Shown: in pieces, positions 13,730-42,188 of the stretch
How the letters are laid out: the number at the start of each line of letters is the position of its first letter
Position numbering within the stretch: the stretch's first letter is position 1
Source of the DNA: Escherichia coli
GTDB taxonomy: Bacteria > Pseudomonadota > Gammaproteobacteria > Enterobacterales > Enterobacteriaceae
Assembly (NCBI RefSeq): GCF_044647545.1
Contig: NZ_CP172818.1
DNA length: 64,000 nucleotides
Direction: 5' to 3' (one strand)
Made by a program: the position numbers and the translations under genes
The notes under the pieces: generated by a model
Told to the model about the DNA's origin: nothing
What the model saw: only the letters and a program-made list of their open reading frames with translations
Database searches by the model: none

Positions 13730-13738
13730 CTTTACCCT

Positions 13739-18139: not shown

Positions 18140-19161
18140 TGGCGCAGATAACAACGACCGATGCCAATGAATTTAGCAGCAGTGCTGAATTCTCCCCTAT
18201 GCGCGGCTTTAGCAATTGTCATCTACAAACCATGCTGCCGCGTCTGTTCCGTCGCAAGGTGAAATTCACCCCGTACTGGCAGCGGCTGGAGTTGCCCGAC
18301 GGCGATTTTGTCGATCTCGCGTGGAGTGAAGATCCTGCACAGGCGCGGCATAAACCGCGTTTAGTCGTGTTTCACGGGCTCGAAGGCAGTCTCAATAGCC
18401 CTTACGCCCACGGTCTGGTTGAGGCGGCGCAAAAGCGTGGCTGGCTGGGCGTGGTGATGCATTTTCGCGGATGCAGCGGTGAACCAAACCGTATGAACCG
18501 CATTTACCATTCGGGCGAAACCGAAGACGCTAGCTGGTTTTTACGCTGGCTGCAACGCGAATTTGGTCATGCGCCAACGGCTGCCGTCGGCTATTCGCTC
18601 GGCGGTAATATGCTGGCCTGTTTGCTGGCAAAAGAAGGTACTGATCTCCCGATTGATGCGGCGGTGATTGTCTCTGCGCCGTTTATGCTGGAGGCCTGTA
18701 GTTACCATATGGAAAAGGGCTTTTCCCGCATTTATCAGCGTTACTTGCTGAACCTGTTAAAAGCCAATGCCGCGCGCAAGCTGGCAGCCTACCCCGGAAC
18801 ACTGCCGATTAATCTCGCGCAGTTAAAATCGGTACGTCGCATCCGTGAATTTGACGATCTCATCACCGCCAGAATTCACGGCTACGCTGACGCTATCGAC
18901 TATTATCGTCAGTGTAGCGCCATGCCGATGCTGAACCAGATCGCCAAACCGACGCTGATTATTCACGCCAAAGACGATCCGTTTATGGATCATCAGGTGA
19001 TCCCGAAACCGGAAAGTCTCCCCCCGCAGGTGGAGTATCAACTGACTGAACATGGCGGTCATGTTGGCTTTATTGGCGGTACGTTACTTCATCCGCAAAT
19101 GTGGCTGGAGTCACGCATTCCTGACTGGTTAACAACGTATCTGGAGGCGAAATCATGTTGA
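18139..19161 (+). CDS. yheT: Alpha/beta-hydrolase family protein YheT
   Basis: 340 aa ORF containing the GYSLGG nucleophile-elbow motif. Confidence 0.85.
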
Positions 19162-19373
19162 TTCCGTGGCAAGACCTCTCCCCCGAAACGCTGGAAAATT
19201 TAATTGAAAGCTTTGTGTTACGTGAAGGCACCGATTATGGTGAACATGAGCGTACACTTGAACAGAAAGTCGCCGACGTCAAACGCCAGCTACAGTGCGG
19301 AGAAGCGGTGCTGGTATGGTCGGAGCTGCACGAAACGGTCAATATCATGCCGCGCAGTCAGTTTCGCGAATAA
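19155..19373 (+). CDS. yheU: UPF0270 family protein YheU
   Basis: 72 aa [32 protein letters not shown]...; overlaps yheT end. Confidence 0.8.
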
Positions 19374-19426
19374 CCTGCAACCGTCGGCGGACGAGATAAT
19401 AATGATAGCTAAGTCATGGAGTTACT

Positions 19427-20296
19427 ATGTCTGCCAAACATCCGGTCATTGCGGTAACAGGATCCAGCGGCGCGGGGACCACCACCACCAGCCTCGCGTT
19501 TCGTAAAATATTCGCGCAGTTAAATCTGCATGCAGCCGAGGTGGAAGGTGACAGTTTTCACCGTTACACCCGCCCGGAAATGGACATGGCGATCCGCAAA
19601 GCGCGCGACGCCGGGCGGCATATCAGCTACTTCGGCCCCGAAGCGAACGACTTCGGCCTGCTGGAACAAACCTTCATTGAATACGGTCAGAGCGGCAAAG
19701 GGAAATCTCGCAAATATCTGCATACCTACGACGAAGCCGTACCGTGGAATCAGGTACCGGGGACATTCACCCCATGGCAACCTTTACCGGAACCCACTGA
19801 TGTACTGTTTTATGAAGGTTTACACGGCGGCGTCGTCACGCCACAGCATAACGTTGCGCAGCATGTGGATTTACTGGTCGGCGTGGTGCCTATCGTTAAC
19901 CTTGAGTGGATTCAAAAATTGATCCGCGACACCAGCGAGCGCGGGCACTCACGAGAAGCAGTGATGGACTCAGTAGTGCGCTCAATGGAAGACTATATCA
20001 ACTACATCACACCGCAGTTTTCCCGCACCCATCTTAACTTCCAGCGCGTTCCCACCGTCGACACCTCAAACCCGTTCGCGGCAAAAGGTATCCCGTCGCT
20101 GGATGAAAGCTTTGTGGTGATCCATTTTCGTAATCTGGAAGGGATCGATTTCCCCTGGCTGCTGGCGATGTTGCAGGGCTCATTCATTTCCCACATCAAT
20201 ACGTTAGTGGTGCCCGGCGGCAAAATGGGTCTGGCAATGGAATTAATTATGCTGCCGCTGGTGCAACGATTGATGGAAGGAAAGAAAATCGAGTAA
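19427..20296 (+). CDS. prkB: Phosphoribulokinase homologue
   Basis: 289 aa ORF MSAKHPVIAVTGSSGAGTTTTSLAF... (P-loop). Confidence 0.85.
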   Translation: MSAKHPVIAVTGSSGAGTTTTSLAFRKIFAQLNLHAAEVEGDSFHRYTRPEMDMAIRKARDAGRHISYFGPEANDFGLLEQTFIEYGQSGKGKSRKYLHTYDEAVPWNQVPGTFTPWQPLPEPTDVLFYEGLHGGVVTPQHNVAQHVDLLVGVVPIVNLEWIQKLIRDTSERGHSREAVMDSVVRSMEDYINYITPQFSRTHLNFQRVPTVDTSNPFAAKGIPSLDESFVVIHFRNLEGIDFPWLLAMLQGSFISHINTLVVPGGKMGLAMELIMLPLVQRLMEGKKIE

Positions 20297-20350
20297 CTCT
20301 GCTATTACGCCGGATAAAATACTATCCGGCTTCACAACGGGATAGTTAAA

Positions 20351-20755
20351 TCACGCGGCAACCACTTCATACGAGTGAGTAATATTCACCGCTTTTTCCA
20401 GCATCAACGCCACTGAACAATATTTCTCAGCAGAGAGATCAACCGCACGCGCAACCGCTGCGTCTTTCAGGTCGCGACCGGTGACGATAAAATGCAGATT
20501 AATGTGCGTAAACAGGCGTGGTGCCTCTTCGCGGCGTTCAGAGGTCAATTTTACTTCACAATCGACCACATCCTGACGCCCTTTTTGCAGGATAGAAACC
20601 ACATCGATGGCACTGCAACCCCCCGCCGCCATCAACACCATTTCCATCGGACTTGGTGCTTTATCGCCTGAGTTGCCGTCCATTAAAATCTGGTGACCAG
20701 AGGCGGATTCGCCCAGAAAAGTTAACCCTTCGACCCACTTCACTCGCGCTTGCAT
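20351..20755 (-). CDS. yhfA: OsmC/Ohr family protein YhfA
   Basis: 134 aa ORF; divergent from crp. Confidence 0.8.
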   Translation of the reverse strand: MQARVKWVEGLTFLGESASGHQILMDGNSGDKAPSPMEMVLMAAGGCSAIDVVSILQKGRQDVVDCEVKLTSERREEAPRLFTHINLHFIVTGRDLKDAAVARAVDLSAEKYCSVALMLEKAVNITHSYEVVAA

Positions 20756-21056
20756 TTTTGCTACTCCACTGCGTCAATTTTCCTGACAGAGTACGCGTAC
20801 TAACCAAATCGCGCAACGGAAGGCGACCTGGGTCATGCTGAAGCGAGACACCAGGAGACACAAAGCGAAAGCTATGCTAAAACAGTCAGGATGCTACAGT
20901 AATACATTGATGTACTGCATGTATGCAAAGGACGTCACATTACCGTGCAGTACAGTTGATAGCCCCTTCCCAGGTAGCGGGAAGCATATTTCGGCAATCC
21001 AGAGACAGCGGCGTTATCTGGCTCTGGAGAAAGCTTATAACAGAGGATAACCGCGC
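20756..21056 (+). promoter_or_regulatory. crp promoter and long 5' leader region (divergent from yhfA)
   Basis: About 300 bp non-coding region immediately upstream of crp; individual sites not resolved by eye. Confidence 0.5.
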
Positions 21057-21689
21057 ATGGTGCTTGGCAAACCGCAAACAGACCCGACTCTCGAATGGTT
21101 CTTGTCTCATTGCCACATTCATAAGTACCCATCCAAGAGCACGCTTATTCACCAGGGTGAAAAAGCGGAAACGCTGTACTACATCGTTAAAGGCTCTGTG
21201 GCAGTGCTGATCAAAGACGAAGAGGGTAAAGAAATGATCCTCTCCTATCTGAATCAGGGTGATTTTATTGGCGAACTGGGCCTGTTTGAAGAGGGCCAGG
21301 AACGTAGCGCATGGGTACGTGCGAAAACCGCCTGTGAAGTGGCTGAAATTTCGTACAAAAAATTTCGCCAATTGATTCAGGTAAACCCGGACATTCTGAT
21401 GCGTCTGTCTGCACAGATGGCGCGTCGTCTGCAAGTCACTTCAGAGAAAGTGGGCAACCTGGCGTTCCTCGACGTGACGGGCCGCATTGCACAGACTCTG
21501 CTGAACCTGGCAAAACAACCAGATGCTATGACTCACCCGGACGGTATGCAAATCAAAATTACCCGTCAGGAAATCGGTCAGATTGTCGGCTGTTCTCGTG
21601 AAACCGTGGGACGCATTCTGAAGATGCTGGAAGATCAGAACCTGATCTCCGCACACGGTAAAACCATCGTCGTTTACGGCACTCGTTAA
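21057..21689 (+). CDS. crp: cAMP receptor protein (global transcription factor CRP)
   Basis: 210 aa [53 protein letters not shown]... with C-terminal [15 protein letters not shown]. Confidence 0.97.
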
Positions 21690-21701
21690 TCCCGTCGGAG
21701 T

Positions 21702-21730
21702 GGCGCGTTACCTGGTAGCGCGCCATTTTG
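21702..21730 (+). terminator. Rho-independent terminator of crp
   Basis: Hairpin ggcgcgttacctggtagcgcgcc followed by attttgttt. Confidence 0.65.
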
Positions 21731-23830
21731 TTTCCCCCGATGTGGCGCAGACTGATTTATCACCCCGATATTAACTATGCACTGCGACAAACGCTGGTGC
21801 TATGTTTGCCCGTGGCCGTTGGGTTAATGCTTGGCGAATTACGATTCGGTCTGCTCTTCTCCCTCGTTCCTGCCTGTTGCAATATTGCGGGCCTTGATAC
21901 GCCTCATAAACGTTTTTTCAAACGCTTAATCATTGGTGCGTCGCTGTTTGCCACCTGTAGCTTGCTGACACAGCTACTACTGGCAAGAGATGTTCCTCTG
22001 CCCTTTTTGCTGACCGGATTAACGCTGGTACTTGGCGTCACTGCTGAGCTGGGGCCATTGCACGCAAAATTGCTTCCCGCATCGCTGCTCGCCGCCATTT
22101 TTACCCTCAGTCTGGCGGGATACATGCCGGTCTGGGAACCGTTGCTCATCTATGCGCTGGGCACTTTGTGGTACGGATTGTTTAACTGGTTTTGGTTCTG
22201 GATCTGGCGCGAACAACCGCTACGCGAGTCACTAAGTCTGCTGTACCGTGAACTGGCAGATTACTGTGAAGCCAAATACAGCCTGCTTACCCAGCACACC
22301 GACCCTGAAAAAGCGCTGCCACCGCTGCTGGTGCGCCAGCAAAAAGCGGTCGATTTAATTACTCAGTGCTATCAGCAAATGCATATGCTTTCCGCGCAAA
22401 ATAATACCGATTACAAGCGGATGCTGCGTATTTTCCAGGAGGCGCTGGATTTGCAGGAACATATTTCGGTCAGTTTGCATCAGCCGGAAGAGGTGCAAAA
22501 GCTGGTCGAGCGTAGCCATGCGGAAGAAGTTATCCGCTGGAATGCGCAAACCGTCGCCGCTCGCCTGCGCGTGCTGGCTGATGACATTCTTTACCATCGC
22601 CTGCCAACGCGTTTTACGATGGAAAAGCAAATTGGCGCACTGGAAAAAATCGCCCGCCAACACCCGGATAATCCGGTTGGGCAATTCTGCTACTGGCATT
22701 TCAGCCGCATTGCCCGCGTGCTGCGCACCCAAAAACCGCTCTATGCCCGTGACTTACTGGCCGATAAACAGCGGCGAATGCCGTTACTTCCGGCGCTGAA
22801 AAGTTATCTGTCACTAAAGTCTCCGGCGCTACGCAATGCCGGACGACTCAGTGTGATGTTAAGCGTTGCCAGCCTGATGGGCACCGCACTGCATCTGCCG
22901 AAGTCGTACTGGATCCTGATGACGGTATTGCTGGTGACGCAAAATGGCTATGGCGCAACCCGTCTGAGGATTGTGAATCGCTCCGTGGGAACCGTGGTCG
23001 GGTTAATCATTGCGGGCGTGGCGCTGCACTTTAAAATTCCCGAAGGTTACACCCTGACCTTGATGCTGATTACCACCCTCGCCAGCTACCTGATATTGCG
23101 CAAAAACTACGGCTGGGCGACGGTCGGTTTTACCATTACCGCAGTGTATACCCTGCAACTGTTGTGGCTGAACGGTGAGCAGTACATCCTTCCGCGTCTT
23201 ATCGATACCATTATTGGTTGTTTAATTGCTTTCGGTGGTACTGTCTGGCTGTGGCCGCAGTGGCAGAGCGGGTTATTGCGTAAGAACGCCCATGACGCTT
23301 TAGAAGCCTATCAGGACGCGATTCGCTTGATTCTGAGCGAGGACCCGCAACCTACGCCACTGGCCTGGCAGCGAATGCGGGTAAATCAGGCGCATAATAC
23401 TCTGTATAACTCATTGAATCAGGCGATGCAGGAACCGGCGTTTAACAGCCATTATCTGGCAGATATGAAACTGTGGGTAACGCACAGCCAGTTTATTGTT
23501 GAGCATATTAATGCCATGACCACGCTGGCGCGGGAACACCGGGCATTGCCACCGGAACTGGCACAAGAGTATTTACAGTCTTGTGAAATCGCCATTCAGC
23601 GTTGTCAGCAGCGACTGGAGTATGATGAACCGGGTAGTTCTGGCGATGCCAATATCATGGATGCGCCGGAGATGCAGCCGCACGAAGGCGCGGCAGGTAC
23701 GCTGGAGCAGCATTTACAGCGGGTTATTGGTCATCTGAACACCATGCACACCATTTCGTCGATGGCATGGCGTCAGCGACCGCATCACGGGATTTGGCTG
23801 AGTCGCAAGTTGCGGGATTCGAAGGCGTAA
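21728..23830 (+). CDS. yhfK: Inner-membrane protein YhfK (FUSC-like family)
   Basis: 700 aa ORF with many hydrophobic segments; true start may be the Met 4 codons downstream. Confidence 0.8.
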   Translation: MFPPMWRRLIYHPDINYALRQTLVLCLPVAVGLMLGELRFGLLFSLVPACCNIAGLDTPHKRFFKRLIIGASLFATCSLLTQLLLARDVPLPFLLTGLTLVLGVTAELGPLHAKLLPASLLAAIFTLSLAGYMPVWEPLLIYALGTLWYGLFNWFWFWIWREQPLRESLSLLYRELADYCEAKYSLLTQHTDPEKALPPLLVRQQKAVDLITQCYQQMHMLSAQNNTDYKRMLRIFQEALDLQEHISVSLHQPEEVQKLVERSHAEEVIRWNAQTVAARLRVLADDILYHRLPTRFTMEKQIGALEKIARQHPDNPVGQFCYWHFSRIARVLRTQKPLYARDLLADKQRRMPLLPALKSYLSLKSPALRNAGRLSVMLSVASLMGTALHLPKSYWILMTVLLVTQNGYGATRLRIVNRSVGTVVGLIIAGVALHFKIPEGYTLTLMLITTLASYLILRKNYGWATVGFTITAVYTLQLLWLNGEQYILPRLIDTIIGCLIAFGGTVWLWPQWQSGLLRKNAHDALEAYQDAIRLILSEDPQPTPLAWQRMRVNQAHNTLYNSLNQAMQEPAFNSHYLADMKLWVTHSQFIVEHINAMTTLAREHRALPPELAQEYLQSCEIAIQRCQQRLEYDEPGSSGDANIMDAPEMQPHEGAAGTLEQHLQRVIGHLNTMHTISSMAWRQRPHHGIWLSRKLRDSKA

Positions 23831-23852
23831 TGCAGGCTAAACCATCGGATAC

Positions 23853-23892
23853 AGCGTTCACGCCGCATCCGACATCTTTTGCCTGATGCGTC
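23853..23892. repeat. REP (repetitive extragenic palindromic) element pair
   Basis: gcgttcacgccgcatccg is the reverse complement of the REP core CGGATGCGGCGTGAACGC; gcctgatgcg follows. Confidence 0.6.
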
Positions 23893-25131
<1,239 letters not shown>

Positions 25132-25201
25132 TTACGCATAAACCAATGTGAAATTATAATCACAAAATATGCATAAAAAATCACTTAATAGCAATCAGAA
25201 A

Positions 25202-25765
25202 TCAGCGATGCAGGAAATTAGCCAGCAGTTGATGTCCTTGTTCGCTGAGAATACTTTCTGGATGGAACTGCACACCTTCCAGATCCCACTGGCGATGGCG
25301 AATCCCCATAATCTCGCGGGTTTCGCTCCAGGCCGTCACTTCAAAGCACGCTGGTAATGAGTTAGGTTCCACCACCAGCGAATGGTAGCGTGTCACGGTA
25401 AGTGGATTTGCCAGCCCCCGAAATACGCCCTCACCGCTATGTGTAATCGGCGAGGTTTTGCCGTGCATGACCTTTGCGGCGCGCACAACTTTGCCACCAA
25501 ATGCCTGCGCCATTGCCTGATGACCGAGGCAAACGCCAAGAATCGGCAAGCACCCGACATAGTGGCGAATAACGTCAAGGGAGATCCCGGCTTCATCTGG
25601 CGTACAGGGGCCGGGTGAGATGACAATTTTTTGTGGTTTAAGGGCGTCGATATCCGCCAGCGTCAACGCATCGTTGCGCTTAACCAGCACATCCGCCCCC
25701 AGTTCACAAAAGTACTGGTAGAGGTTCCAGGTAAAAGAATCGTAGTTATCAATAAGCAGGATCAT
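25202..25765 (-). CDS. pabA: Aminodeoxychorismate synthase glutamine amidotransferase subunit
   Basis: 187 aa [31 protein letters not shown]... with GVCLGHQ catalytic Cys motif. Confidence 0.92.
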
Positions 25766-25796
25766 GGCGGCTCCGGTACGAAAGAACCGCGCTATT

Positions 25797-26399
25797 TTAC
25801 TCAGATTCCCCGGCTTCGCTTACCACTTTGCTAAATATCATCTGCAGTGCGGTGAGATCCCCCATTGCCCCACTCTGATTTGCCTGATTCCAGGCCTCTT
25901 TTTCGATACCCTGCCAGCTCAGTTGGTAGCCCGCATGAATCGCTAGTTGCTCGAAGAAGATCCGCTGTGCCAGACCACTTCCCACCCGGAAGGGATGCAG
26001 CACGTTGATTTCACAATAGTAATGCGCCAGCCGCTCGACGAACTTCGCTTTCTTCAGGCCAACCAGATAACCTTCTTCCTCCAGATCCTGCATCAGGGCA
26101 TTGCCCTCTTTTTCGATATAAGCAAAGTGGCAGAACGGCGTATCTCCCTGATAAATATCGACTTCGCGCAGTTGCCCCGCCCAGTCGAAAATATCCTGAT
26201 ACAGCTGGCGATGGATAGTGCGCAAATGCGGTAAACCGCGCACCAGCGGACCAAGCTCAATGGTCGCAGCACGTAGCGCCGTCATTTCGTAAGCGGCCTG
26301 TTCCAGCCGCTGCTGCTGGCGGATGTTCAGCCGGTTACGCATGATATCAAGGCCTGGATAAAGATACGGATCGCGCCCTTCGCCGAATTTATCGCTCAT
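25797..26399 (-). CDS. fic: Fic-family protein (cell filamentation protein Fic)
   Basis: 200 aa [32 protein letters not shown]...; Fic-motif region reads [12 protein letters not shown]. Confidence 0.85.
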
Positions 26400-26556
26400 A
26401 GTGCCCCCTCAGCGCTTCAAGACGCGCTAAAGCCTCTGCGGCAGTAAGAGTGACTAAAGGCATCTCGACGCCTTCAAGACGGCGACTGGCCTGGAAATTA
26501 CGATTACGCTGAAGCTCCCAGAGACGGGACTTTTGCTTATCGGTGAGTTTCTTCAC
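26389..26556 (-). CDS. yhfG: Small protein YhfG (Fic partner / putative antitoxin-like protein)
   Basis: 55-codon ORF from GTG with GGAGG-like RBS; stop overlaps the fic start; absent from the ORF track because under 60 aa. Confidence 0.65.
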
Positions 26557-26660
26557 TTGATGCCTCCCTGAACGTGTCCATTTGCCACAAGTATAAGCGG
26601 CAAATCCGGGTTACGCCGGGAGAGCAGAAGCGCGGGCAAGATTGCCCGCGCGAGAAATCA

Positions 26661-27242
<582 letters not shown>

Positions 27243-27503
27243 TTAACAAACAGAGCAGAAAAAAAGCAAGTGAAGAGATTCTAAATAGCCTTCAAGAACA
27301 AGGCCATCCCTTTACCTAATTTTACGTATCTGAAATATATGTAACCTGACGGTCACTTTTTATTCCGTGATCAAAATCACCTCTTAAAATGCAATTTAGC
27401 AACCGATTGCAATAAAACATTTAATCAGATCACAAAATCGCCTAAAATCGCCCGCTCGCGGCATAGCCCGCTATGCCATTTTATTTTTGAACGCAGGCCA
27501 ATC

Positions 27504-28685
27504 ATGACTAACAGCAATCGCATCAAGCTCACATGGATTAGCTTTCTTTCCTACGCACTGACCGGTGCGTTGGTTATTGTCACCGGGATGGTGATGGGAA
27601 ATATCGCCGATTATTTCAATCTGCCTGTTTCCAGTATGAGTAATACCTTCACCTTCCTCAACGCCGGCATTTTAATCTCTATCTTCCTCAACGCCTGGCT
27701 GATGGAAATCGTCCCGTTGAAAACGCAGTTACGTTTTGGCTTTCTCCTGATGGTGCTGGCGGTTGCCGGTTTGATGTTCAGCCACAGCCTGGCACTGTTC
27801 TCGGCGGCGATGTTCATTCTCGGGGTGGTCAGCGGCATCACCATGTCGATTGGTACATTCCTGGTAACACAAATGTATGAAGGACGTCAGCGCGGTTCAC
27901 GCCTGTTATTTACCGACTCCTTCTTCAGTATGGCCGGGATGATTTTCCCAATGATCGCCGCGTTTCTGCTGGCGCGCAGCATTGAGTGGTACTGGGTTTA
28001 TGCCTGCATCGGGCTGGTGTACGTCGCTATCTTTATTCTGACCTTCGGCTGTGAGTTCCCGGCGCTGGGTAAACATGCGCCAAAAACGGACGCTCCGGTA
28101 GCGAAAGAAAAATGGGGGATCGGCGTGCTGTTTCTCTCCATTGCGGCACTGTGCTACATCCTCGGTCAGTTAGGTTTTATCTCCTGGGTGCCTGAGTATG
28201 CCAAAGGCCTGGGCATGAGCCTGAACGACGCGGGCACGCTGGTGAGTAACTTCTGGATGTCATACATGGTCGGCATGTGGGCGTTCAGCTTTATTCTTCG
28301 CTTCTTTGATTTGCAACGCATTCTGACCGTACTGGCTGGTCTGGCTGCGATTCTGATGTACGTCTTTAACACCGGAACACCGGCACATATGGCGTGGTCA
28401 ATTCTCGCCCTGGGCTTCTTCTCCAGCGCGATCTATACCACCATCATCACTTTGGGTTCACAGCAGACAAAAGTACCGTCGCCAAAACTGGTTAACTTTG
28501 TCCTGACCTGCGGGACCATCGGTACTATGTTGACCTTTGTGGTTACCGGCCCGATTGTTGAACATAGCGGTCCGCAGGCGGCGCTGCTGACGGCAAACGG
28601 TCTGTACGCTGTCGTCTTTGTGATGTGCTTCCTGTTAGGTTTCGTCAGCCGTCACCGTCAGCATAACACCCTGACCTCTCATTAA
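27504..28685 (+). CDS. tsgA: MFS-type membrane protein TsgA
   Basis: 393 aa multi-[33 protein letters not shown]... Confidence 0.85.
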
Positions 28686-28845
28686 TTGCTCATGCCGGGC
28701 GGCACTATCGTCGTCCGGCCTTTTCCTCTCTTACCGCGCTACGTACATCTATTTCTATAAACCCGCTCAATTTGTCTGTTTTTTGTACAAACATGAAATG
28801 TCAGACAATTCCGTGACTTAAGAAAATTTATACAAATCAGCAACA

Positions 28846-28861
28846 TACCTCTTAAGGAGTA
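28846..28861 (+). promoter_or_regulatory. NarL/NarP 7-2-7 binding site of the nirB promoter
   Basis: TACCTCT-TA-AGGAGTA inverted heptamers, centred about 27 bp upstream of the FNR box, as in the characterised nirB promoter. Confidence 0.6.
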
Positions 28862-28873
28862 TATAAAGGTGAA

Positions 28874-28887
28874 TTTGATTTACATCA
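28874..28887 (+). promoter_or_regulatory. FNR binding site of the nirB promoter
   Basis: Perfect TTGAT-N4-ATCAA (TTGATTTACATCAA); TAAGGT -10 at 28909..28914; about 60 nt upstream of the nirB ATG. Confidence 0.75.
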
Positions 28888-28946
28888 ATAAGCGGGGTTG
28901 CTGAATCGTTAAGGTAGGCGGTAATAGAAAAGAAATCGAGGCAAAA

Positions 28947-31490
28947 ATGAGCAAAGTCAGACTCGCAATTATCGGTAACGGTATGGTCGGCCATCGCTTT
29001 ATCGAAGATCTTCTTGATAAATCTGATGCGGCCAACTTTGATATTACCGTTTTCTGTGAAGAACCGCGCATCGCTTATGACCGCGTACACCTCTCGTCTT
29101 ACTTCTCTCACCACACCGCCGAAGAGCTGTCGCTGGTGCGCGAAGGCTTCTACGAGAAACACGGCATCAAAGTTCTGGTCGGCGAACGCGCTATCACCAT
29201 CAACCGTCAGGAGAAGGTGATTCACTCCAGCGCCGGGCGCACCGTTTTTTATGACAAGCTGATCATGGCGACCGGTTCCTACCCGTGGATCCCGCCAATC
29301 AAAGGTTCTGATACTCAGGACTGCTTTGTCTATCGCACTATTGAAGACCTCAACGCCATTGAATCCTGCGCCCGTCGCAGCAAACGCGGTGCCGTTGTTG
29401 GTGGCGGCCTGTTAGGTCTGGAAGCCGCTGGCGCGCTGAAAAACTTAGGTATTGAAACCCACGTTATCGAATTTGCCCCTATGCTGATGGCGGAACAGCT
29501 TGATCAGATGGGTGGCGAGCAGCTGCGTCGCAAAATCGAAAGTATGGGCGTGCGCGTTCACACCAGCAAAAACACCCTTGAGATTGTGCAGGAAGGTGTC
29601 GAAGCGCGTAAAACCATGCGTTTTGCCGACGGCAGCGAGCTGGAAGTCGACTTTATCGTCTTCTCAACCGGTATCCGTCCGCGCGATAAGCTGGCAACCC
29701 AGTGTGGTCTGGACGTTGCTCCGCGTGGGGGTATTGTCATCAATGATTCCTGCCAGACTTCCGATCCGGATATCTACGCCATCGGTGAATGCGCAAGCTG
29801 GAACAACCGTGTATTTGGTCTGGTAGCACCTGGCTACAAAATGGCGCAGGTCGCCGTTGACCATATTCTTGGTAGCGAAAACGCCTTTGAAGGTGCTGAC
29901 CTTAGCGCCAAGTTGAAACTGCTGGGCGTAGACGTAGGTGGTATTGGTGATGCGCACGGTCGCACGCCTGGCGCACGTAGCTACGTTTACCTCGACGAAA
30001 GCAAAGAGATCTACAAACGCCTTATTGTCAGCGAAGACAACAAAACCCTGCTCGGTGCGGTACTGGTGGGCGATACCAGCGACTACGGCAACCTGCTGCA
30101 ACTGGTGCTGAACGCTATCGAGCTGCCGGAAAACCCGGATTCTCTGATTCTGCCGGCGCACTCTGGTAGCGGTAAGCCGTCTATCGGTGTTGATAAACTG
30201 CCGGACAGCGCGCAAATCTGCTCCTGCTTCGACGTCACCAAAGGCGACCTGATTGCTGCTATCAACAAAGGCTGCCACACCGTTGCGGCGCTGAAAGCTG
30301 AAACCAAAGCGGGTACTGGCTGCGGTGGCTGTATCCCGCTGGTCACTCAGGTACTGAACGCGGAACTGGCGAAGCAGGGCATCGAAGTTAACAACAACCT
30401 GTGCGAACACTTTGCTTATTCGCGTCAGGAACTGTTCCATTTAATCCGCGTTGAAGGCATTAAAACCTTCGAAGAACTGCTGGCGAAACACGGCAAAGGC
30501 TACGGTTGTGAAGTTTGTAAACCGACCGTCGGTTCGCTGCTGGCCTCCTGCTGGAACGAATACATTCTGAAGCCGGAACATACTCCGCTGCAGGATTCAA
30601 ACGACAACTTCCTCGCTAACATCCAGAAAGACGGCACCTACTCGGTGATCCCGCGTTCTCCGGGCGGTGAAATCACCCCGGAAGGGCTGATGGCAGTAGG
30701 TCGTATCGCGCGTGAATTTAATCTCTACACCAAAATCACCGGCTCCCAGCGCCTGGCGATGTTTGGCGCACAGAAAGACGATCTGCCGGAGATCTGGCGT
30801 CAGCTGATTGAAGCCGGCTTCGAAACCGGTCATGCCTATGCGAAAGCACTGCGTATGGCGAAAACCTGCGTGGGTAGCACCTGGTGCCGCTACGGCGTTG
30901 GCGATAGCGTCGGCCTCGGCGTGGAACTGGAAAACCGCTACAAAGGCATCCGTACTCCGCACAAAATGAAGTTTGGTGTCTCCGGCTGTACCCGTGAATG
31001 TTCAGAAGCTCAGGGTAAGGACGTGGGTATCATCGCCACCGAAAAAGGCTGGAACCTCTACGTTTGTGGTAACGGCGGCATGAAACCGCGTCATGCGGAT
31101 CTGCTGGCGGCGGATATCGATCGCGAAACGCTGATCAAATATCTCGACCGCTTCATGATGTTCTACATCCGTACTGCCGACAAACTGACGCGTACCGCGC
31201 CGTGGTTAGAAAACCTTGAAGGCGGCATCGATTACCTGAAAGCGGTGATCATTGACGACAAACTGGGGCTGAACGCACATCTGGAAGAAGAGATGGCGCG
31301 CCTGCGTGAAGCGGTAGTATGTGAGTGGACTGAGACGGTCAATACACCGTCCGCGCAGACTCGCTTCAAACACTTCATCAACAGCGACAAGCGTGACCCG
31401 AACGTGCAGATGGTGCCAGAGCGCGAACAGCACCGTCCGGCAACGCCGTATGAACGTATCCCGGTAACTCTGGTGGAGGACAACGCATGA
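28947..31490 (+). CDS. nirB: NADH-dependent nitrite reductase large subunit
   Basis: 847 aa ORF MSKVRLAIIGNGMVGHRFIEDLL... with FAD/NAD Rossmann motifs and sirohaem/Fe-S Cys motifs. Confidence 0.95.
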   Translation: MSKVRLAIIGNGMVGHRFIEDLLDKSDAANFDITVFCEEPRIAYDRVHLSSYFSHHTAEELSLVREGFYEKHGIKVLVGERAITINRQEKVIHSSAGRTVFYDKLIMATGSYPWIPPIKGSDTQDCFVYRTIEDLNAIESCARRSKRGAVVGGGLLGLEAAGALKNLGIETHVIEFAPMLMAEQLDQMGGEQLRRKIESMGVRVHTSKNTLEIVQEGVEARKTMRFADGSELEVDFIVFSTGIRPRDKLATQCGLDVAPRGGIVINDSCQTSDPDIYAIGECASWNNRVFGLVAPGYKMAQVAVDHILGSENAFEGADLSAKLKLLGVDVGGIGDAHGRTPGARSYVYLDESKEIYKRLIVSEDNKTLLGAVLVGDTSDYGNLLQLVLNAIELPENPDSLILPAHSGSGKPSIGVDKLPDSAQICSCFDVTKGDLIAAINKGCHTVAALKAETKAGTGCGGCIPLVTQVLNAELAKQGIEVNNNLCEHFAYSRQELFHLIRVEGIKTFEELLAKHGKGYGCEVCKPTVGSLLASCWNEYILKPEHTPLQDSNDNFLANIQKDGTYSVIPRSPGGEITPEGLMAVGRIAREFNLYTKITGSQRLAMFGAQKDDLPEIWRQLIEAGFETGHAYAKALRMAKTCVGSTWCRYGVGDSVGLGVELENRYKGIRTPHKMKFGVSGCTRECSEAQGKDVGIIATEKGWNLYVCGNGGMKPRHADLLAADIDRETLIKYLDRFMMFYIRTADKLTRTAPWLENLEGGIDYLKAVIIDDKLGLNAHLEEEMARLREAVVCEWTETVNTPSAQTRFKHFINSDKRDPNVQMVPEREQHRPATPYERIPVTLVEDNA

Positions 31491-31813
31491 GCCAGTGGAA
31501 AGACATCTGCAAAATCGATGACATCCTGCCTGAAACCGGCGTCTGCGCGCTGTTAGGTGACGAGCAGGTAGCAATTTTCCGCCCGTATCACAGCGACCAG
31601 GTGTTTGCGATCAGCAACATCGACCCGTTCTTCGAGTCCAGCGTGCTGTCACGCGGGCTGATTGCGGAACACCAGGGCGAGCTGTGGGTCGCCAGCCCGC
31701 TGAAAAAACAGCGTTTTCGCTTAAGCGACGGCTTGTGCATGGAAGACGAACAGTTTTCCGTCAAGCATTACGACGCGCGAGTGAAAGACGGCGTGGTGCA
31801 GCTACGCGGTTAA
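31487..31813 (+). CDS. nirD: Nitrite reductase small subunit
   Basis: 108 aa ORF MSQWKDICKIDDILPETGVCALLGDEQVAIFRP...; 4-nt overlap with nirB. Confidence 0.92.
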   Translation: MSQWKDICKIDDILPETGVCALLGDEQVAIFRPYHSDQVFAISNIDPFFESSVLSRGLIAEHQGELWVASPLKKQRFRLSDGLCMEDEQFSVKHYDARVKDGVVQLRG

Positions 31814-31937
31814 TGTTTTAACGGGAGGCACAATGCCTCCCCTTTTTGCATGGTCCTGTAATAACCTTGGTATATTGCAGGACATTTTTTAAACTTTTTG
31901 TTTTATTTTTTGTTTTTATTTTTTAAAGGATAATCAA

Positions 31938-32744
31938 ATGTTTACAGACACTATTAATAAGTGTGCGGCTAACGCTGCGCGCATTGCACGCCTGTCGGCA
32001 AATAACCCGCTCGGCTTCTGGGTCAGCTCCGCAATGGCGGGGGCGTATGTGGGTCTTGGGATCATCCTGATTTTCACGCTCGGTAATTTGCTCGACCCGT
32101 CCGTACGTCCTCTGGTGATGGGCGCGACCTTTGGTATCGCCTTAACGCTGGTCATTATTGCTGGTTCTGAACTGTTCACCGGACACACCATGTTCCTCAC
32201 CTTTGGAGTGAAAGCGGGCACTATCAGCCACGGGCAAATGTGGGCAATCCTGCCGCAAACCTGGCTGGGTAACCTGGTTGGTTCCGTCTTTGTTGCCATG
32301 CTCTATAGCTGGGGCGGCGGTAGCCTGCTGCCGGTAGATACCAGCATCGTTCACTCCGTCGCGCTGGCTAAAACCACTGCACCGGCAATGGTACTGTTCT
32401 TCAAAGGTGCATTGTGTAACTGGCTGGTTTGCCTGGCTATCTGGATGGCGCTGCGCACTGAAGGGGCGGCGAAATTTATCGCTATCTGGTGGTGTCTGCT
32501 GGCATTTATCGCGTCCGGCTACGAGCACTCCATCGCGAACATGACGCTGTTCGCCCTCTCCTGGTTTGGCAACCACAGCGAAGCCTACACGCTGGCGGGT
32601 ATTGGTCATAACCTGCTGTGGGTGACGCTGGGTAATACTTTATCAGGTGCCGTATTCATGGGATTGGGTTATTGGTATGCTACGCCGAAAGCGAATCGTC
32701 CGGTTGCGGACAAATTTAATCAAACTGAAACAGCTGCCGGTTAA
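31938..32744 (+). CDS. nirC: Nitrite transporter NirC (formate/nitrite transporter family)
   Basis: 268 aa multi-TM ORF MFTDTINKCAANAARIARLSANNPLGFWVSSAMAG... Confidence 0.92.
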   Translation: MFTDTINKCAANAARIARLSANNPLGFWVSSAMAGAYVGLGIILIFTLGNLLDPSVRPLVMGATFGIALTLVIIAGSELFTGHTMFLTFGVKAGTISHGQMWAILPQTWLGNLVGSVFVAMLYSWGGGSLLPVDTSIVHSVALAKTTAPAMVLFFKGALCNWLVCLAIWMALRTEGAAKFIAIWWCLLAFIASGYEHSIANMTLFALSWFGNHSEAYTLAGIGHNLLWVTLGNTLSGAVFMGLGYWYATPKANRPVADKFNQTETAAG

Positions 32745-32762
32745 TTACTAAGGGGTTTTTAC

Positions 32763-34136
32763 GTGGATCATTTGCCTATATTTTGCCAATTACGCGATCG
32801 CGACTGTCTGATTGTCGGCGGTGGTGATGTCGCGGAACGCAAAGCAAGGTTGCTGTTAGACGCAGGCGCTCGCTTAACGGTGAATGCATTAGCGTTTATT
32901 CCACAGTTCACCGCATGGGCAGATGCAGGCATGTTAACCCTCGTCGAAGGGCCATTTGATGAAAGCCTTCTCGACACCTGCTGGCTGGCGATTGCAGCGA
33001 CAGATGATGACGCGCTTAACCAGCGCGTCAGTGAAGCCGCTGAAGCTCGTCGCATCTTCTGTAACGTGGTCGATGCGCCGAAAGCCGCCAGCTTTATTAT
33101 GCCGTCAATTATTGACCGCTCACCGCTCATGGTCGCGGTCTCCTCTGGCGGCACCTCTCCGGTTCTGGCACGCCTGTTGCGTGAAAAACTTGAATCACTG
33201 CTGCCGTTGCATCTGGGCCAGGTAGCGAAATACGCCGGGCAATTACGCGGTCGAGTGAAACAACAGTTCGCCACAATGGGTGAACGTCGCCGTTTCTGGG
33301 AAAAACTGTTCGTTAATGACCGTCTGGCGCAGTCGCTGGCAAACAACGATCAGAAAGCCATTACTGAAACGACCGAACAATTAATCAACGAACCGCTCGA
33401 CCATCGCGGTGAAGTGGTGCTGGTTGGCGCAGGTCCGGGCGATGCCGGGCTGCTGACACTGAAAGGACTGCAACAAATTCAGCAGGCAGATGTGGTGGTC
33501 TACGACCGTCTGGTTTCTGACGATATTATGAATCTGGTACGCCGCGATGCTGATCGCGTTTTCGTCGGCAAACGCGCGGGATACCACTGCGTACCGCAGG
33601 AAGAGATTAACCAGATCCTGCTGCGGGAAGCGCAAAAAGGCAAACGCGTGGTGCGACTGAAAGGCGGCGATCCGTTTATTTTTGGCCGTGGTGGCGAAGA
33701 GCTGGAAACACTGTGCAATGCAGGCATTCCGTTCTCGGTGGTTCCGGGTATTACCGCAGCTTCTGGTTGCTCTGCCTATTCGGGTATTCCGCTCACGCAT
33801 CGCGATTATGCCCAGAGCGTACGCTTAATTACCGGACACTTAAAAACCGGTGGCAAACTGGACTGGGAAAACCTGGCGGCAGAAAAACAGACGCTGGTGT
33901 TCTATATGGGGTTGAATCAGGCCGCGACTATTCAGCAAAAGCTGATTGAACACGGTATGCCTGGCGAAATGCCGGTGGCAATTGTCGAAAACGGAACGGC
34001 AGTCACGCAGCGCGTGATTGACGGTACGCTCACGCAGCTGGGCGAACTGGCGCAGCAAATGAACAGTCCATCGCTAATTATTATTGGTCGGGTTGTTGGC
34101 CTGCGCGATAAATTGAACTGGTTCTCTAACCATTAA
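32763..34136 (+). CDS. cysG: Sirohaem synthase (uroporphyrinogen-III methyltransferase / dehydrogenase / ferrochelatase)
   Basis: 457 aa [35 protein letters not shown]... with C-terminal [15 protein letters not shown] methylase motif. Confidence 0.95.
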
Positions 34137-34144
34137 TTTAACCA

Positions 34145-34168
34145 GGGCCAGAGAATTCTGGCCTTTTT
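34145..34168 (+). terminator. Rho-independent terminator of the nirBDC-cysG operon
   Basis: Hairpin gggccagagaattctggcc followed by ttttt, immediately after the cysG stop. Confidence 0.7.
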
Positions 34169-34386
34169 CGTTTACAACTCTCTTTATATATTCAGCAGAT
34201 AAAAATACCCCCCTTAATAAATATTATCTGCTAATGGGTTATATTCACCGTTACAGCGACTTACAAAATTAAGTCATTCGTTCACTGACGCCAATTAAAT
34301 ATTCCTGTATCATTCTTAATGAGCAGTCTGCTTATATTCATATAATCAATGAATATTAATCAATATATAATACATAGGGAATGTAA

Positions 34387-34554
34387 ATGAACAAATTTAT
34401 TAAAGTTGCACTGGTAGGTGCGGTACTGGCTACGTTAACTGCATGTACTGGTCATATTGAAAACCGTGATAAGAACTGCTCTTACGACTACCTGCTGCAC
34501 CCAGCTATTTCTATTTCTAAAATCATTGGCGGTTGCGGTCCTACTGCACAGTAA
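34387..34554 (+). CDS. yhfL: Small lipoprotein YhfL
   Basis: 55-codon ORF MNKFIKVALVGAVLATLTACTGHIENRDKNCSYDYLLHPAISISKIIGGCGPTAQ with lipobox LTAC; below the ORF-track size cut-off. Confidence 0.7.
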   Translation: MNKFIKVALVGAVLATLTACTGHIENRDKNCSYDYLLHPAISISKIIGGCGPTAQ

Positions 34555-34619
34555 GTCTCTGACAGAAATTGGCTGATGCTGATTTATTGCCTGCGCCCTC
34601 GGGTTTCCGGGGTCCAGAA

Positions 34620-35705
34620 TTAAACGTCGGCAATACTCTCGCGCAAAATCCGCAATACCGTCTCTTCACCGCTGCGATTTGGGTTAATACGAATCGCGTA
34701 ATGTTCGAGTTGCGGATTCGCCTGGCGAAACGTTCCGGAAAGTCGATAAAAAAGTGGCGGAATTTCATATTTCGACTCCGCGCCCACCGGATACGGCAAC
34801 GCGCCGCGTTTCTGCGCCTCCTCCAGCACCCTGGCGGCAATCGGCTGATGAAACTCGACAATCAACACCTTCGACTGTGCATTGGCAATGACGGCGCTTT
34901 TCACTTCCGGAACTGCACCACCGTTGAGCAAGGCCAGCAACCGCTCAGATACCCCCGCCTGCACCGCGTGCATCACTGGCGCAAACACCAGCCCACGCAA
35001 GACTTCCAGCGCCTGAGCGCCCTGAATCTGGCTGCCGCCGGAATAGAGCGTGGCGCGAATACGGTTAATAACATCAGCATCGCCTACCACCGCGCCAACA
35101 CCCTCTGGCCCAAATAGCTTGAAGCAGGAAAATGTCGAGACATTCGCCCCGCATTCACAGCCAATGCTCGCCACCTTCATCACCGCATAGTTGTCATCGG
35201 TTAAGACTGGAACCCCTGCCGCGCACAACGTTGCCAGCACATCTGCCAGTACATAGCTGTCCTGCGGCTGCTGGCGCGTATGCTGCACCAGCGCCGCATC
35301 CGGTTGTTGCTCGTCGACGACCTGCTTAAGTGCCGACAGGTCATTGAAATTAGCAGTAATAAGCGTCAGCCCCATCTGCTCAATAATGACCTGAGTCGTC
35401 GGGTAAACCGGCGCGTCATGCACCAGAAGACGCTGCCCCGGTTTGAGCAAAGCCGCCAACGCCGCACGGATCGCGCCAGTACCCGCGCCCTGTACCAGCG
35501 CCGCAGCCTGTGCGTGAAACGCGTCAGCCAGCACCTGTTCCACACGCTGGGTAATGCGCGGTTGATTCAGTCCCGGCGTTAATCCCAAATCACCGCAGGT
35601 AAGAAATTCGCTACCAGGAAAATGGCGACAAATGCTATCCACCAGCGCAAACTGCTTTTGCTGCGCCTCAATAATCGTCAGGCTTTGCAGAGGAAACGTC
35701 TTCAT
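34620..35705 (-). CDS. yhfS: PLP-dependent enzyme YhfS (uncharacterised)
   Basis: 361 aa ORF; last gene of the yhfZ-yhfS same-strand block. Confidence 0.8.
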   Translation of the reverse strand: MKTFPLQSLTIIEAQQKQFALVDSICRHFPGSEFLTCGDLGLTPGLNQPRITQRVEQVLADAFHAQAAALVQGAGTGAIRAALAALLKPGQRLLVHDAPVYPTTQVIIEQMGLTLITANFNDLSALKQVVDEQQPDAALVQHTRQQPQDSYVLADVLATLCAAGVPVLTDDNYAVMKVASIGCECGANVSTFSCFKLFGPEGVGAVVGDADVINRIRATLYSGGSQIQGAQALEVLRGLVFAPVMHAVQAGVSERLLALLNGGAVPEVKSAVIANAQSKVLIVEFHQPIAARVLEEAQKRGALPYPVGAESKYEIPPLFYRLSGTFRQANPQLEHYAIRINPNRSGEETVLRILRESIADV

Positions 35706-35716
35706 AGGTGCCTTCC

Positions 35717-37021
35717 TTAAGCCGGAACGAACAGGCCAAGCCAGTAAAGAACATTCAGCAGAATACCGGTGATCATTACTGCCACGACCGGTGCCGCCAT
35801 TTTCTGTACCGGACGGCCCAGGGATTCGTTGAGGAAGTAAATGGCAACTGCGATAGAGAATCCGGTATAACCCGCCATTTTAATTGCTGCGAAAATCGAA
35901 CCGACCAGCAACGCCACTTCCATCAGCATATTCATGGCGTTACGGATGTTATCCGACGCATTACGCACCGACGGGTAGCGCCCCAGCCATTTGCCGATCG
36001 AACGAAGCAGCAAGACTTCCGCCGAAATAACCACTGCGCCTAATACCGCTGCAACCATCGGATTCGGCGAGAGATAGCCCACCGCATAAACAAAGGTAAA
36101 GCCCGCAACTGCATATACGCCGGTGGCTAACGCGGTGGTGGCAATCAACGGCACAAAACCCAGTCCGCGCATAAATTCCGCCAGAGCTGCCTGGTTGATT
36201 AGTGTTTGCGATTGTTCCGGCGTTACGCCTGCGGAGTACGCTTTCTCCAGAGTGAAGATCGACACTTCACTACCGGCGAAAATCTTCATGCTGGCAACGG
36301 CGGCAATCAATGCTCCCACGATGGCGATATACGGTAAGTTTTTGATAATCCGTGACGTGCGTTCTTCAAACACCGAAAGCCCGCTGGCATCAATGTCATT
36401 TTCATCACGATGACGCAGGTCGTGAGTTATCGCGATCCCCAGCAGCATCACCATACCAATAAAGATTTCGATGGATTCAGGGTTAAGATGTGGGAAATAG
36501 TGCACGACGACCACACGGGTCATCAGTACCACCACGGCGGCGATCAGACTTTGCTTCCAGCCAAACTGGTAGAAAATCGCCACCAGCGGGAAGAGTGCAA
36601 AAGCTGAAACCACCGGCGAGCTTAATTCCCCGAGGCTACCTAATACATCCACCGGTAGCGCGGTCAGCAGCTGGTTTACTGGCAACAGACAGGTGAGGAT
36701 CAACACGCCCCAGATAGCGCCAAGACCAAACGCCATCAGGCTGTTTATCGCCAGTACGCCGAGGATATCGGTAGGAAGAAAGAGTAACCATGCGTTGAGC
36801 AGCCCGGTTTTCAGGGTAAAAGAGATCCCCACCGAGGCCACAAAACCAATGCTCAGACCAAAAGCGATACTCCCCGCCTCGCGACGGTTCATATAGCCTT
36901 CAATCAGTTGTGGCAGGATCGGGCGGATACCGTCATGAAAAACGGCCGCCGAGCGATGCGCCAGAAGCGATGTCATACCCGTCAGGCACGCCACCACGAT
37001 AATCTGAATATACAGATCCAT
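35717..37021 (-). CDS. yhfT: Multi-pass membrane protein YhfT (putative transporter)
   Basis: 434 aa ORF, strongly hydrophobic throughout. Confidence 0.8.
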   Translation of the reverse strand: MDLYIQIIVVACLTGMTSLLAHRSAAVFHDGIRPILPQLIEGYMNRREAGSIAFGLSIGFVASVGISFTLKTGLLNAWLLFLPTDILGVLAINSLMAFGLGAIWGVLILTCLLPVNQLLTALPVDVLGSLGELSSPVVSAFALFPLVAIFYQFGWKQSLIAAVVVLMTRVVVVHYFPHLNPESIEIFIGMVMLLGIAITHDLRHRDENDIDASGLSVFEERTSRIIKNLPYIAIVGALIAAVASMKIFAGSEVSIFTLEKAYSAGVTPEQSQTLINQAALAEFMRGLGFVPLIATTALATGVYAVAGFTFVYAVGYLSPNPMVAAVLGAVVISAEVLLLRSIGKWLGRYPSVRNASDNIRNAMNMLMEVALLVGSIFAAIKMAGYTGFSIAVAIYFLNESLGRPVQKMAAPVVAVMITGILLNVLYWLGLFVPA

Positions 37022-37032
37022 AGTCGTGCCTT

Positions 37033-37386
37033 TTATTTCAGATGGTTAATCAGCATCGGAATCGCGTGTTCAACGTGCTCAACGGAAAGGCCAAACGCCA
37101 CTTTTCCTTCAGCGATCATTTTGGCGATATGTTCGTCTTTCGCTTTAATGCCCGGTTTGGCAATGGTGCAACTTTTGTTATAGCCAATCACCGCGATGGC
37201 AATCGACAATGCCGCGCCCGCACCGGTATTACACGCACCGATGTAGTAATCCAGTTGCCCGGATTTCACTTTCATTGCCGCTTCCATGTCGTTGTGAATG
37301 AAAACTTCGAAACAGCCAGGAGCCGTCGCTTCAATGGTTTTTTTAATCTGCTCACGCTGTAAGCCTGCAACACCAATCTTTTTCAT
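37033..37386 (-). CDS. yhfU: Small uncharacterised protein YhfU
   Basis: ORF ...MKKIGVAGLQREQIKKTIEATAPGCFEVFIHNDMEAAMK...; start placed at the internal Met (117 aa). Confidence 0.75.
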   Translation of the reverse strand: MKKIGVAGLQREQIKKTIEATAPGCFEVFIHNDMEAAMKVKSGQLDYYIGACNTGAGAALSIAIAVIGYNKSCTIAKPGIKAKDEHIAKMIAEGKVAFGLSVEHVEHAIPMLINHLK

Positions 37387-37396
37387 GAGTCTGTCC

Positions 37397-38275
37397 TTAT
37401 TGGAAAAATTGAGAGGGATTTTCACGTAACATCACATCCACATCGGCCTGACTGAATCCTGACTGGCGCAATTGCGGAATAAAGGTGGTCAATAAAAAGT
37501 CATAGCCATAACCACCGTTGGCTTTTAAATGAGAGCGCCGCGTAATATCCATCGACAGCATGACGCGGTTCAGCAACCCACGGTCACGTAGCGCATGGAG
37601 CATCGCAATCCGCTTTTCGTCCGGGTAGTAACTGTTCTTGCCGATGGTGTCGAACTGCACATACGCGCCGAGATCGATCATCTTCAAAATGTTGTCGAGA
37701 TTGTCTTTCAGATCGCAGTGGCCGACGGTGACGCGCGAAAGATCAACTCCGTGGGCTTGCAACAGAGCCAGTTGCTCCAGCCCCATGGTGCTAAAAGAGG
37801 TATGCGTGGAGATCGGACGTCCGGTCTGGTTATGTGCCAGCGCGGCGGCAATAAACACCTTCTCTTCCAGCGGCGTAATCTTCCCTTCGCTGGAGCCGAT
37901 CTCCGCGATGATCCCGGCTTTCAGCTCCGTGCCATCGATACCCTGCTCAATTTCATCGACCATCTCCTGCGCCAGTTCCTGCACGCTGCGGGTCGCCACA
38001 TGTTCCGGGAAAAACGCGTCCTGGTAATAACCGGTACAGGCCACCACGTTGATCCCGGTTTCGCGCATTACATCGAGCATAAATTGTGCATTGCGCCCCA
38101 TGTAACGGTTGGTCATCTCAATCACATTACGCACACCCAGTGCCATCAGGTCGTTCATCTCCTGGCAAATGAACGCATACTGATCAAGGCGGCAGTCCAC
38201 GTTGTTTTTAAAGCCGGAGAGATCAATATGCAGATGCTCATGGGCCAGGGTGTAGCCCGTTGAATCAAAACTCAT
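37397..38275 (-). CDS. php: Phosphotriesterase-homology protein (amidohydrolase superfamily, binuclear metal centre)
   Basis: 292 aa [25 protein letters not shown]... with HxH motif. Confidence 0.85.
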
Positions 38276-39498
38276 AGGGTGTCTCCTGCAAACCGGAGGG
38301 AGGAAAGAAAAGAGCGACCATTTTGTGGCGGTGGCGCACGGAAAAATTCACACACGGTAGCGCCCACATCGGAGAGCGTGGTGCGAACACCAAGCTGCGT
38401 GGCAGCCAGGCCTTGCTGATAAACCAGCACCGGCACGACTTCGCGGGTATGGTGGCTGTGACCGATTGTCGGATCGTTACCGTGATCCGCCATCACGACC
38501 AGGCAATCATCTGGCTGCATCGTCTCAACCAGGAGAGCAAGATTACGGTCAACGACCTGCAAACGTTCGGCATAACGTGCGACGTCTTCTGCGTGACCAG
38601 CGAGGTCGGTTTCCTGAATGTTGGTGCAAATAAACGCTGTCTGATGGGTGATAAATTCGTCGAGGGTGATATCCATAATCCGCTGGCTATCCACCAGGTT
38701 TTGCCAGCTCACGCCATAAGGATTGTTGACGATATCTGCCACCTTACCCACCAGCACGGTTGGCACGCCTGCTTCATACAGTTTTTGTGGCACCTGCACT
38801 TTTTCATCGACGCCATAGCCCATATGCACGACCTGGAAACCGTTGTCATAAGCGCCAGAACGCGGCGCGTTGATGCCAATAAAGCGCCCTTCTTTGCTTT
38901 CTGCGGCATCGAGAATGCGTTGACTGTCGGTTAACAGGCCGCCAAATGTAATGACCCGCCCGACCGGTACCTGCTCACGCACGATACGACCAATTTTGAT
39001 TGCGTCGTCAAAAGAGACCACAGAGAGATTGGCGGTGATGTTATAGACCTGGCCTAAATCCGCCTCGAGATTATCGCCAATCGCAACCGCCTGATTGACC
39101 CACAGAAATTGCAACTCTTCGCCACGGCGCTCCACCTGCCAAGCGGCGGAAACTAATGCCTGCTCAACACGGTCAATCACATCGCGAAAAGGCATCCGCA
39201 GCGGCGGTAACGGGCGCGTGCCTAAAATTTCCTGATGCCCCATAAAGGTATCGCCACCTTCATGTTGCAGCTCTGCCACACCCCAGGTTGCGGAGTCTGA
39301 CGGCTGCATATCACCTGGCGCATAACCCAATGCGTTGATTAGCCCCAACTTCTCCAGCGTTGGTAGCTGCAAATGCGGCAGCTGGCTCAGGATGTGACCA
39401 CAAGTATTCGCCCCGGCATCCTGTGGACGCACCAGCGTGACATCTTTCATTGCGCCTACGCCAAAGCTATCAATCACTAACACCACAAATCGCGCCAT
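38272..39498 (-). CDS. yhfW: Phosphopentomutase-like metalloenzyme YhfW
   Basis: 408 aa ORF with [16 protein letters not shown] metal-binding motif typical of DeoB-like mutases; 4-nt overlap with php. Confidence 0.8.
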
Positions 39499-40661: not shown

Positions 40662-40744
40662 CTTGTTGCCTCGTTTCTGTTCCTTGAATTAAATATTCAT
40701 TTTTTTGAATATTTAGGTTGTGCGACGTGGATTTGTCGGGAGCT

Positions 40745-41107: not shown

Positions 41108-41123
41108 TTCAGATGCCTTTCAT

Positions 41124-42173: not shown

Positions 42174-42188
42174 GGCATTAATGTTAAA

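Follow-up and report, generated by a model that had tools for sequence, protein, structure and literature searches.

The nirBDC-cysG locus

The stretch of DNA analysed here (64 kb, hereafter the window) is a piece of the E. coli chromosome that carries ppiA, tsgA and the nirBDC-cysG genes. The nirB promoter lies between tsgA and nirB, and is followed by nirD, nirC and cysG, in the order and with the lengths found in K-12. All four genes are on the plus strand and full length; nirB encodes the large subunit of the NADH-nitrite reductase (847 aa, 28947..31490), with the same coordinates in the open reading frame and in the annotation of strain ECONIH1, and the other three were also taken from the list of open reading frames and this annotation, i.e., nirD (108 aa, 31487..31813), nirC, the nitrite transporter gene (268 aa, 31938..32744), and cysG, the siroheme synthase gene (457 aa, 32763..34136). 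The ECONIH1 annotation is valid for the genes of the window because both sequences are identical base for base over 5030..34586 and 34614..63959; a patch at 3661..5030 differs. The neighbourhood pabA, fic, yhfG, ppiA, tsgA, nirB, nirD and nirC is found in K-12 MG1655 as well as in ECONIH1, and the 275 bp that run from the tsgA stop into nirB have a match in 5425 of 5426 complete E. coli genomes, in each case at the annotated nirB gene.

The nirB control region is bounded upstream by the tsgA intrinsic terminator (28694..28719, plus strand), a hairpin with 8 G-C pairs among its 10 pairs and a T-run after it, located just past the tsgA stop at 28685. In the stem of this terminator, position 28699 is a G in the window and an A in K-12, which changes an A-U pair to G-U; the hairpin prediction persists. 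On the minus strand, two open reading frames run over the promoter and the 5' end of nirB, one of 135 aa with a GTG start (28818..29225) and one of 63 aa (28880..29071); these are presumably spurious, because the homologous records annotate none. The genes for the regulators that are relevant to this promoter, fnr, narXL, narQP, ihfAB, fis and cra, are all located outside the window. Scans of the whole window for RNA genes, with Rfam at the gathering threshold and with a tRNA search, gave zero matches.

Two other intervals differ from K-12 in gene content. Between yhfL (34387..34554) and yhfS (34620..35705) there is a gap of approx. 65 bp (34555..34619) from which frlABCDR is absent, whereas K-12 carries the fructoselysine operon frlABCDR between these genes; within this gap, the positions 34587..34613 differ from ECONIH1 by small indels. 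Likewise, the interval from rpsJ to tuf (3480..5080) is without the gsp type II secretion operon and without chiA, both of which K-12 has between rpsJ and tufA. In ECONIH1 the annotation of this interval contains only a remnant of a prepilin peptidase of 155 aa, bfr and bfd; in the window, the region 3661..5030 shows many indels relative to ECONIH1 and has no intact open reading frame for the peptidase. Apart from the small indels at 34587..34613, this region is the one place in the 64 kb where the two sequences diverge.

Elements of the nirB promoter

The FNR box of the nirB promoter reads TTGAT-TTAC-ATCAA (TTGATTTACATCAA, 28875..28888), a perfect match to the consensus and identical to the box of K-12. 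Its centre, at 28881.5, is 65.5 bp from the nirB ATG, also as in K-12. The pattern TTGATNNNNATCAA occurs once in the 64 kb when both strands are scanned, against 0.05 occurrences expected from shuffled sequences. Upstream of this box there is a NarL/NarP site formed by the inverted heptamers TACCTCT-TA-AGGAGTA (TACCTCTTAAGGAGTA, 28846..28861), centred at 28853.5; the corresponding 7-2-7 pattern TACYYMTNNAKRRGTA is also present once in the window, with 0 mismatches, and 0.00 occurrences are expected from shuffles. The centres of the two sites are 28 bp apart, which corresponds to 29 bp from start to start and to a gap of 13 bp.

Previously, the start of nirB transcription was placed 23 or 24 nt upstream of the ATG, with TAAGGT as the -10 hexamer (PMC4216584). 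In the window this hexamer is located at 28910..28915 on the plus strand (-13..-8), without a usable -35 element. The A at 28923 (plus strand), 24 nt before the ATG, is the putative transcription start; it agrees with the published start and is the sole position that gives an FNR centre of -41.5. With this literature-derived +1, the FNR box and the 7-2-7 site are centred at -41.5 and -69.5, respectively, matching the position of FNR at nirB in a table of FNR ChIP data (PMC3688515) and that of NarL in the nir promoter (PMC10853779). A scan of 28500..29100 for two sigma-70 hexamers did not find a promoter-like pair, which is explained because an activator-dependent class II promoter is expected to be without a -35. 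Downstream of the start, a Shine-Dalgarno sequence GAGG (28938..28941, plus strand) lies 5 nt 5' of the ATG, and GAGGCA is kept in nearly all the loci of other species.

Most of these positions had been given in the earlier note on this DNA, made from the letters. Coordinates and letters of the NarL/NarP site were as described there, as was the ATG at 28947 that opens the frame of 847 aa; the proposed arrangement of FNR at -41.5 and NarL/NarP at -69.5 is reproduced with +1 at 28923, and the published start agrees with the spacings. The FNR box is indeed a perfect consensus and the TAAGGT hexamer is present, but both lie 1 bp to the right of where they had been placed (28874..28887 and 28909..28914, respectively). 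Although the FNR box does lie downstream of the NarL site, the distance of about 27 bp was a loose figure for the values indicated above. The two slips of 1 bp are harmless to the conclusion on geometry; that first reading is trustworthy for motif recognition, with a coordinate error of approx. 1 bp, and it serves as a positive control.

In addition to these sites, a Cra (FruR)-like operator, GCTGAATCGTTAAG (28900..28913, plus strand), overlaps the -10 hexamer; it is centred at -16.5 and has one mismatch to the consensus RSTGAAWCSNTHHW. When the window was scanned with this consensus allowing one mismatch, 17 sites were found versus 13 expected from shuffles, a result that is weak alone. However, the block GCTGAATCGTTAAGGTAGGC is conserved throughout the Enterobacteriaceae, and we take it to contain the nir Cra operator, centred at -16.5; Cra control of nir is reportedly the subject of the work of Tyson et al. 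in 1997. The only perfect match to RSTGAAWCSNTHHW in the window is GGTGAATCGATACT at 62161..62174, approx. 285 bp upstream of the start of pckA (near 62447, calculated by offset), which is a Cra-activated gene.

Farther upstream, an IHF core-like element, AATCAGCAACATA (28835..28847, plus strand), has one mismatch to WATCARNNNNTTR and shares 2 bp with the left NarL heptamer; it corresponds to the IHF I site, reported at -88. The scan of the window with WATCARNNNNTTR gave 98 matches against 80 expected from shuffles, which is not significant alone. On the other hand, the sequence AAATCA at -89..-84, which coincides with the reported IHF position, is 90-95% conserved across 102 sequences. This block adjoins the left heptamer and fits the published clash between IHF at -88 and NarL at the nir promoter (PMC10853779). 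The assignments of the Cra-like and IHF-like sites rest on conservation and on the literature, because the scans with their consensus sequences are weakly enriched over shuffles.

A Fis I-like site, GTCTGTTTTTTGTAC (28774..28788), is centred at -142, the position that Browning et al. in 2000 reportedly assigned to Fis I. The degenerate Fis consensus is GNNYRNNWNNYRNNC, and it accommodates the sequence of the window as well as its K-12 counterpart, GTCTATTTTTTGCAC, from which the window differs by two substitutions (-145 A>G and -137 C>T). Judged from the sequence, the upstream IHF and Fis sites look preserved, on a minority haplotype.

Conservation of the sites and variation among alleles

The nirB loci of other species were collected from a set of species-representative genomes with a degenerate DNA pattern that represents NirB codons 1 to 17. 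This gave 105 loci, i.e., relatives that keep that N-terminus, and as such a biased sample of nirB genes; statistics on spacing refer to 101 of them, which have 150 bp or more of upstream sequence. The genera sampled were Escherichia, Citrobacter, Salmonella, Enterobacter, Klebsiella, Kluyvera, Rahnella, Ewingella, Hafnia, Pectobacterium and Photobacterium.

The FNR box has 0 mismatches in 88 of the 101 loci; in 98 of them, a search of 300 bp for the 7-2-7 pattern gave a single best match, whose centre precedes that of the FNR box by exactly 28 bp. All Enterobacterales have 64.5 or 65.5 bp between the FNR centre and the ATG, and Photobacterium has 70.5-72.5 bp; in 80 of 103 loci, TAAGGT keeps its offset from the FNR box. 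From Escherichia to Photobacterium, the spacing of 28 bp between the FNR and NarL sites is thus essentially invariant, which speaks in favour of strict helical-phase or steric constraints on anti-repression. In ungapped column statistics, the FNR half-sites reach 1.5-2.0 bits, and the outer ends of the heptamers (T-77, A-76, C-75 and G-64, T-63, A-62) 1.6-2.0 bits; the spacer and the neighbouring columns have approx. 0.1-0.6 bits, and these low values are an internal control against conservation through mere relatedness.

Within the 7-2-7 site, positions 1-3 of the heptamers are nearly invariant in both halves. The least conserved column is -73 (C.51, A.31, T.18), and -72 (C.64, A.36) is among the least conserved as well; outside the site, the column at -79 (T.56) is unconstrained. 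The left heptamer TACCTCT of the window is found in 13 of the 101 loci, mostly in Citrobacter, several of them with the identical 16-mer TACCTCTTAAGGAGTA. A symmetric covariation of the two heptamers among species was looked for and rejected: positions 4-7 vary independently, and perfect palindromes account for only 3 of 51 distinct sites.

Several of these loci deserve a separate description. The promoters of Photobacterium spp., which belong to the Vibrionaceae, keep the 28-bp spacing; they have a weaker FNR box (TTGAT-N4-[AG]TCAT), an ATG located 5-7 bp farther away and another -10 region. Two copies, each on its own contig, are present in P. sanguinicancri. In Kluyvera genomosp. 3 YDC799, one base is missing from the right NarL heptamer (TACTCATTAAGGGTAGG versus TACTCATTAAGGGGTA in other Kluyvera), so that the 7-2-7 register is broken; this could be a natural nirB promoter blind to NarL and NarP, or possibly an assembly error. 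A promoter and N-terminus of the Enterobacteriaceae type were also found in Chryseobacterium sp. 18061 and in Prolixibacteraceae bacterium JC049 (a contig of 408 bp); the FNR box and NarL site of the former are the same as those of Citrobacter sp. 18056, from the same project, and both records are likely contaminations or mislabelled assemblies.

Within E. coli, alignment with the characterised promoter of K-12 MG1655 showed that the window is identical base for base from 28852, the last base of the left heptamer (-71), to the ATG, a segment that includes the right heptamer, the FNR box, the Cra-like block, the -10 hexamer, the leader and the Shine-Dalgarno sequence. In the 261 bp compared there are 11 substitutions, at -224, -190, -187, -178, -153, -145, -137, -123, -79, -73 and -72, i.e., all at or upstream of -72. 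Four of them (-123, -137, -145 and -153) are around the region reported for Fis I and IHF II, and the four changes farther upstream include the one in the stem of the tsgA terminator. The T>C change at -79 sits in the NNNN spacer of the IHF core-like element, and the remaining two (-73 C>T and -72 A>C) replace the left heptamer TACCCAT of K-12 with TACCTCT. The description of these sites as textbook ones in the earlier note hence holds for the geometry and for the FNR box, but not for the left heptamer.

Alleles were counted as exact matches to the 60-bp segment -99..-40 among approx. 5,400 complete E. coli genomes. The commonest left heptamer is TACCCCT with T at -79 (3806 exact 60-mers, approx. 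70%), which is carried by strains such as cq9 and O157:H7, while the K-12 spelling TACCCAT is itself a minority (1203, approx. 22%). TACCTCT was found in 62 genomes, 51 with T at -79 and 11 with C, the latter being the haplotype of the window; it differs from the majority allele at -73 (T for C) and at -79 (C for T), and shares with it the core and the geometry. The three heptamers, TACCTCT, TACCCAT and TACCCCT, fit the NarL heptamer consensus TACYYMT (PMC4886647), and natural variation in the NarL/NarP site is confined to the positions that are degenerate in this consensus. Of 5426 E. coli records, 5204 (96%) carry the 92-bp core (28855..28946) without any change; on the other hand, over the 275 bp from the tsgA stop into nirB, identity to the window reaches 99% or more in only 96 of 5427 records. 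Outside E. coli, the nirB promoters of Citrobacter (C. werkmanii, C. youngae, C. braakii, C. gillenii and C. portucalensis) share with the window the 16-mer, the spacing of 28 bp, the distance to the ATG and the TAAGGT hexamer; they differ from it in the spacer of the FNR box (TTGT or TTGC versus TTAC) and in their diverged flanks.

The rarity of the allele leaves room for a reading in which it shifts the balance between NarL/NarP and IHF, and makes the lineage different from K-12 in inducibility by nitrite or nitrate, or in the preference for NarL versus NarP. The low counts of both forms of TACCTCT relative to TACCCCT and TACCCAT agree with it, and the changes fall in the overlap of the NarL site with the IHF core-like element; moreover, a study of pnrf reports that regulation is altered by the natural sequence divergence of pathogenic strains (PMC5434802). 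Nevertheless, positions -79, -73 and -72 are all non-conserved columns across the 102 sequences, both heptamer changes remain within TACYYMT, the invariant TAC and GTA ends are unchanged, and TACCTCT is normal in Citrobacter species that keep the whole architecture, which makes this reading unlikely. A more specific form of it, namely that TACCTCT together with C at -79 retunes the competition between IHF and NarL, giving a clone-specific threshold or amplitude of the induction of the cytoplasmic nitrite reductase by nitrite and nitrate, is to be regarded as quite improbable. Most likely, the rare allele behaves like the common ones.

Identity and expected control of the promoter

Almost certainly, the promoter of the window is pnir, the promoter of the E. 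coli nir operon, which belongs to class II of the FNR-dependent promoters and is present here as a rare allele that is compatible with the consensus. It shares with pnir of K-12 the tsgA-nirBDC-cysG locus and the -41.5 / -69.5 geometry. That the motifs are a chance co-occurrence or relics and nirB is transcribed from elsewhere would agree with the empty sigma-70 scan, but the missing -35 is expected at a class II promoter, and the uniqueness of both motifs in the window with a near-zero expectation, the identity between 28852 and the ATG to the promoter characterised in K-12, the core that is exact in 96% of the E. coli records and the spacing kept in 98 of 101 loci make it extremely improbable. 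The nir promoter system is already known, and its current understanding is unchanged by this analysis.

According to what is known of pnir, its control in this strain would proceed as follows. In anaerobiosis, a dimer of FNR would bind TTGAT-N4-ATCAA at -41.5, replacing the missing -35, and would recruit and activate RNA polymerase at the TAAGGT -10 hexamer. A nucleoprotein assembly of IHF (approx. -88), Fis (approx. -142) and H-NS is expected to hold down this FNR-dependent activation. In the presence of nitrate or nitrite, phosphorylated NarL or NarP would bind the 7-2-7 site at -69.5, and would displace IHF, because this site abuts the IHF core, thereby lifting repression; the Cra operator over the -10 may add catabolite control. 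It has been shown that, at the nir promoter, NarL and NarP relieve the repression exerted by IHF (-88) and Fis, rather than acting by simple recruitment (PMC10853779). Since these regulators act by anti-repression, the upstream IHF and Fis sites matter too.

The sequence gives good support to the view that the cis elements for anaerobic and nitrate/nitrite control of nirBDC-cysG are intact, and we infer that the sites are bound and that the regulation operates in this strain. However, given that the promoter is on a minority upstream haplotype with 11 differences, of which two fall within the Fis I-like site and another within the spacer of the IHF core, its quantitative behaviour could differ from that of K-12.

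The promoter pnrf, which controls the operon of the periplasmic nitrite reductase, has its NarL/NarP site at -74.5 instead of -69.5, and its IHF and Fis sites are at positions different from those of pnir. In spite of these differences, pnrf follows the same logic, i.e., activation by FNR, a boost by NarL/NarP with nitrite, and nucleoid-associated proteins that suppress the transcription dependent on FNR (PMC5434802). The NarL-only promoters yeaR and ogt have the same 7-2-7 recognition element as nir; however, in these promoters NarL works from -43.5 or -44.5 by direct activation of RNA polymerase, in which FNR takes no part, in contrast with the anti-repression from -69.5 at nir (PMC10853779).
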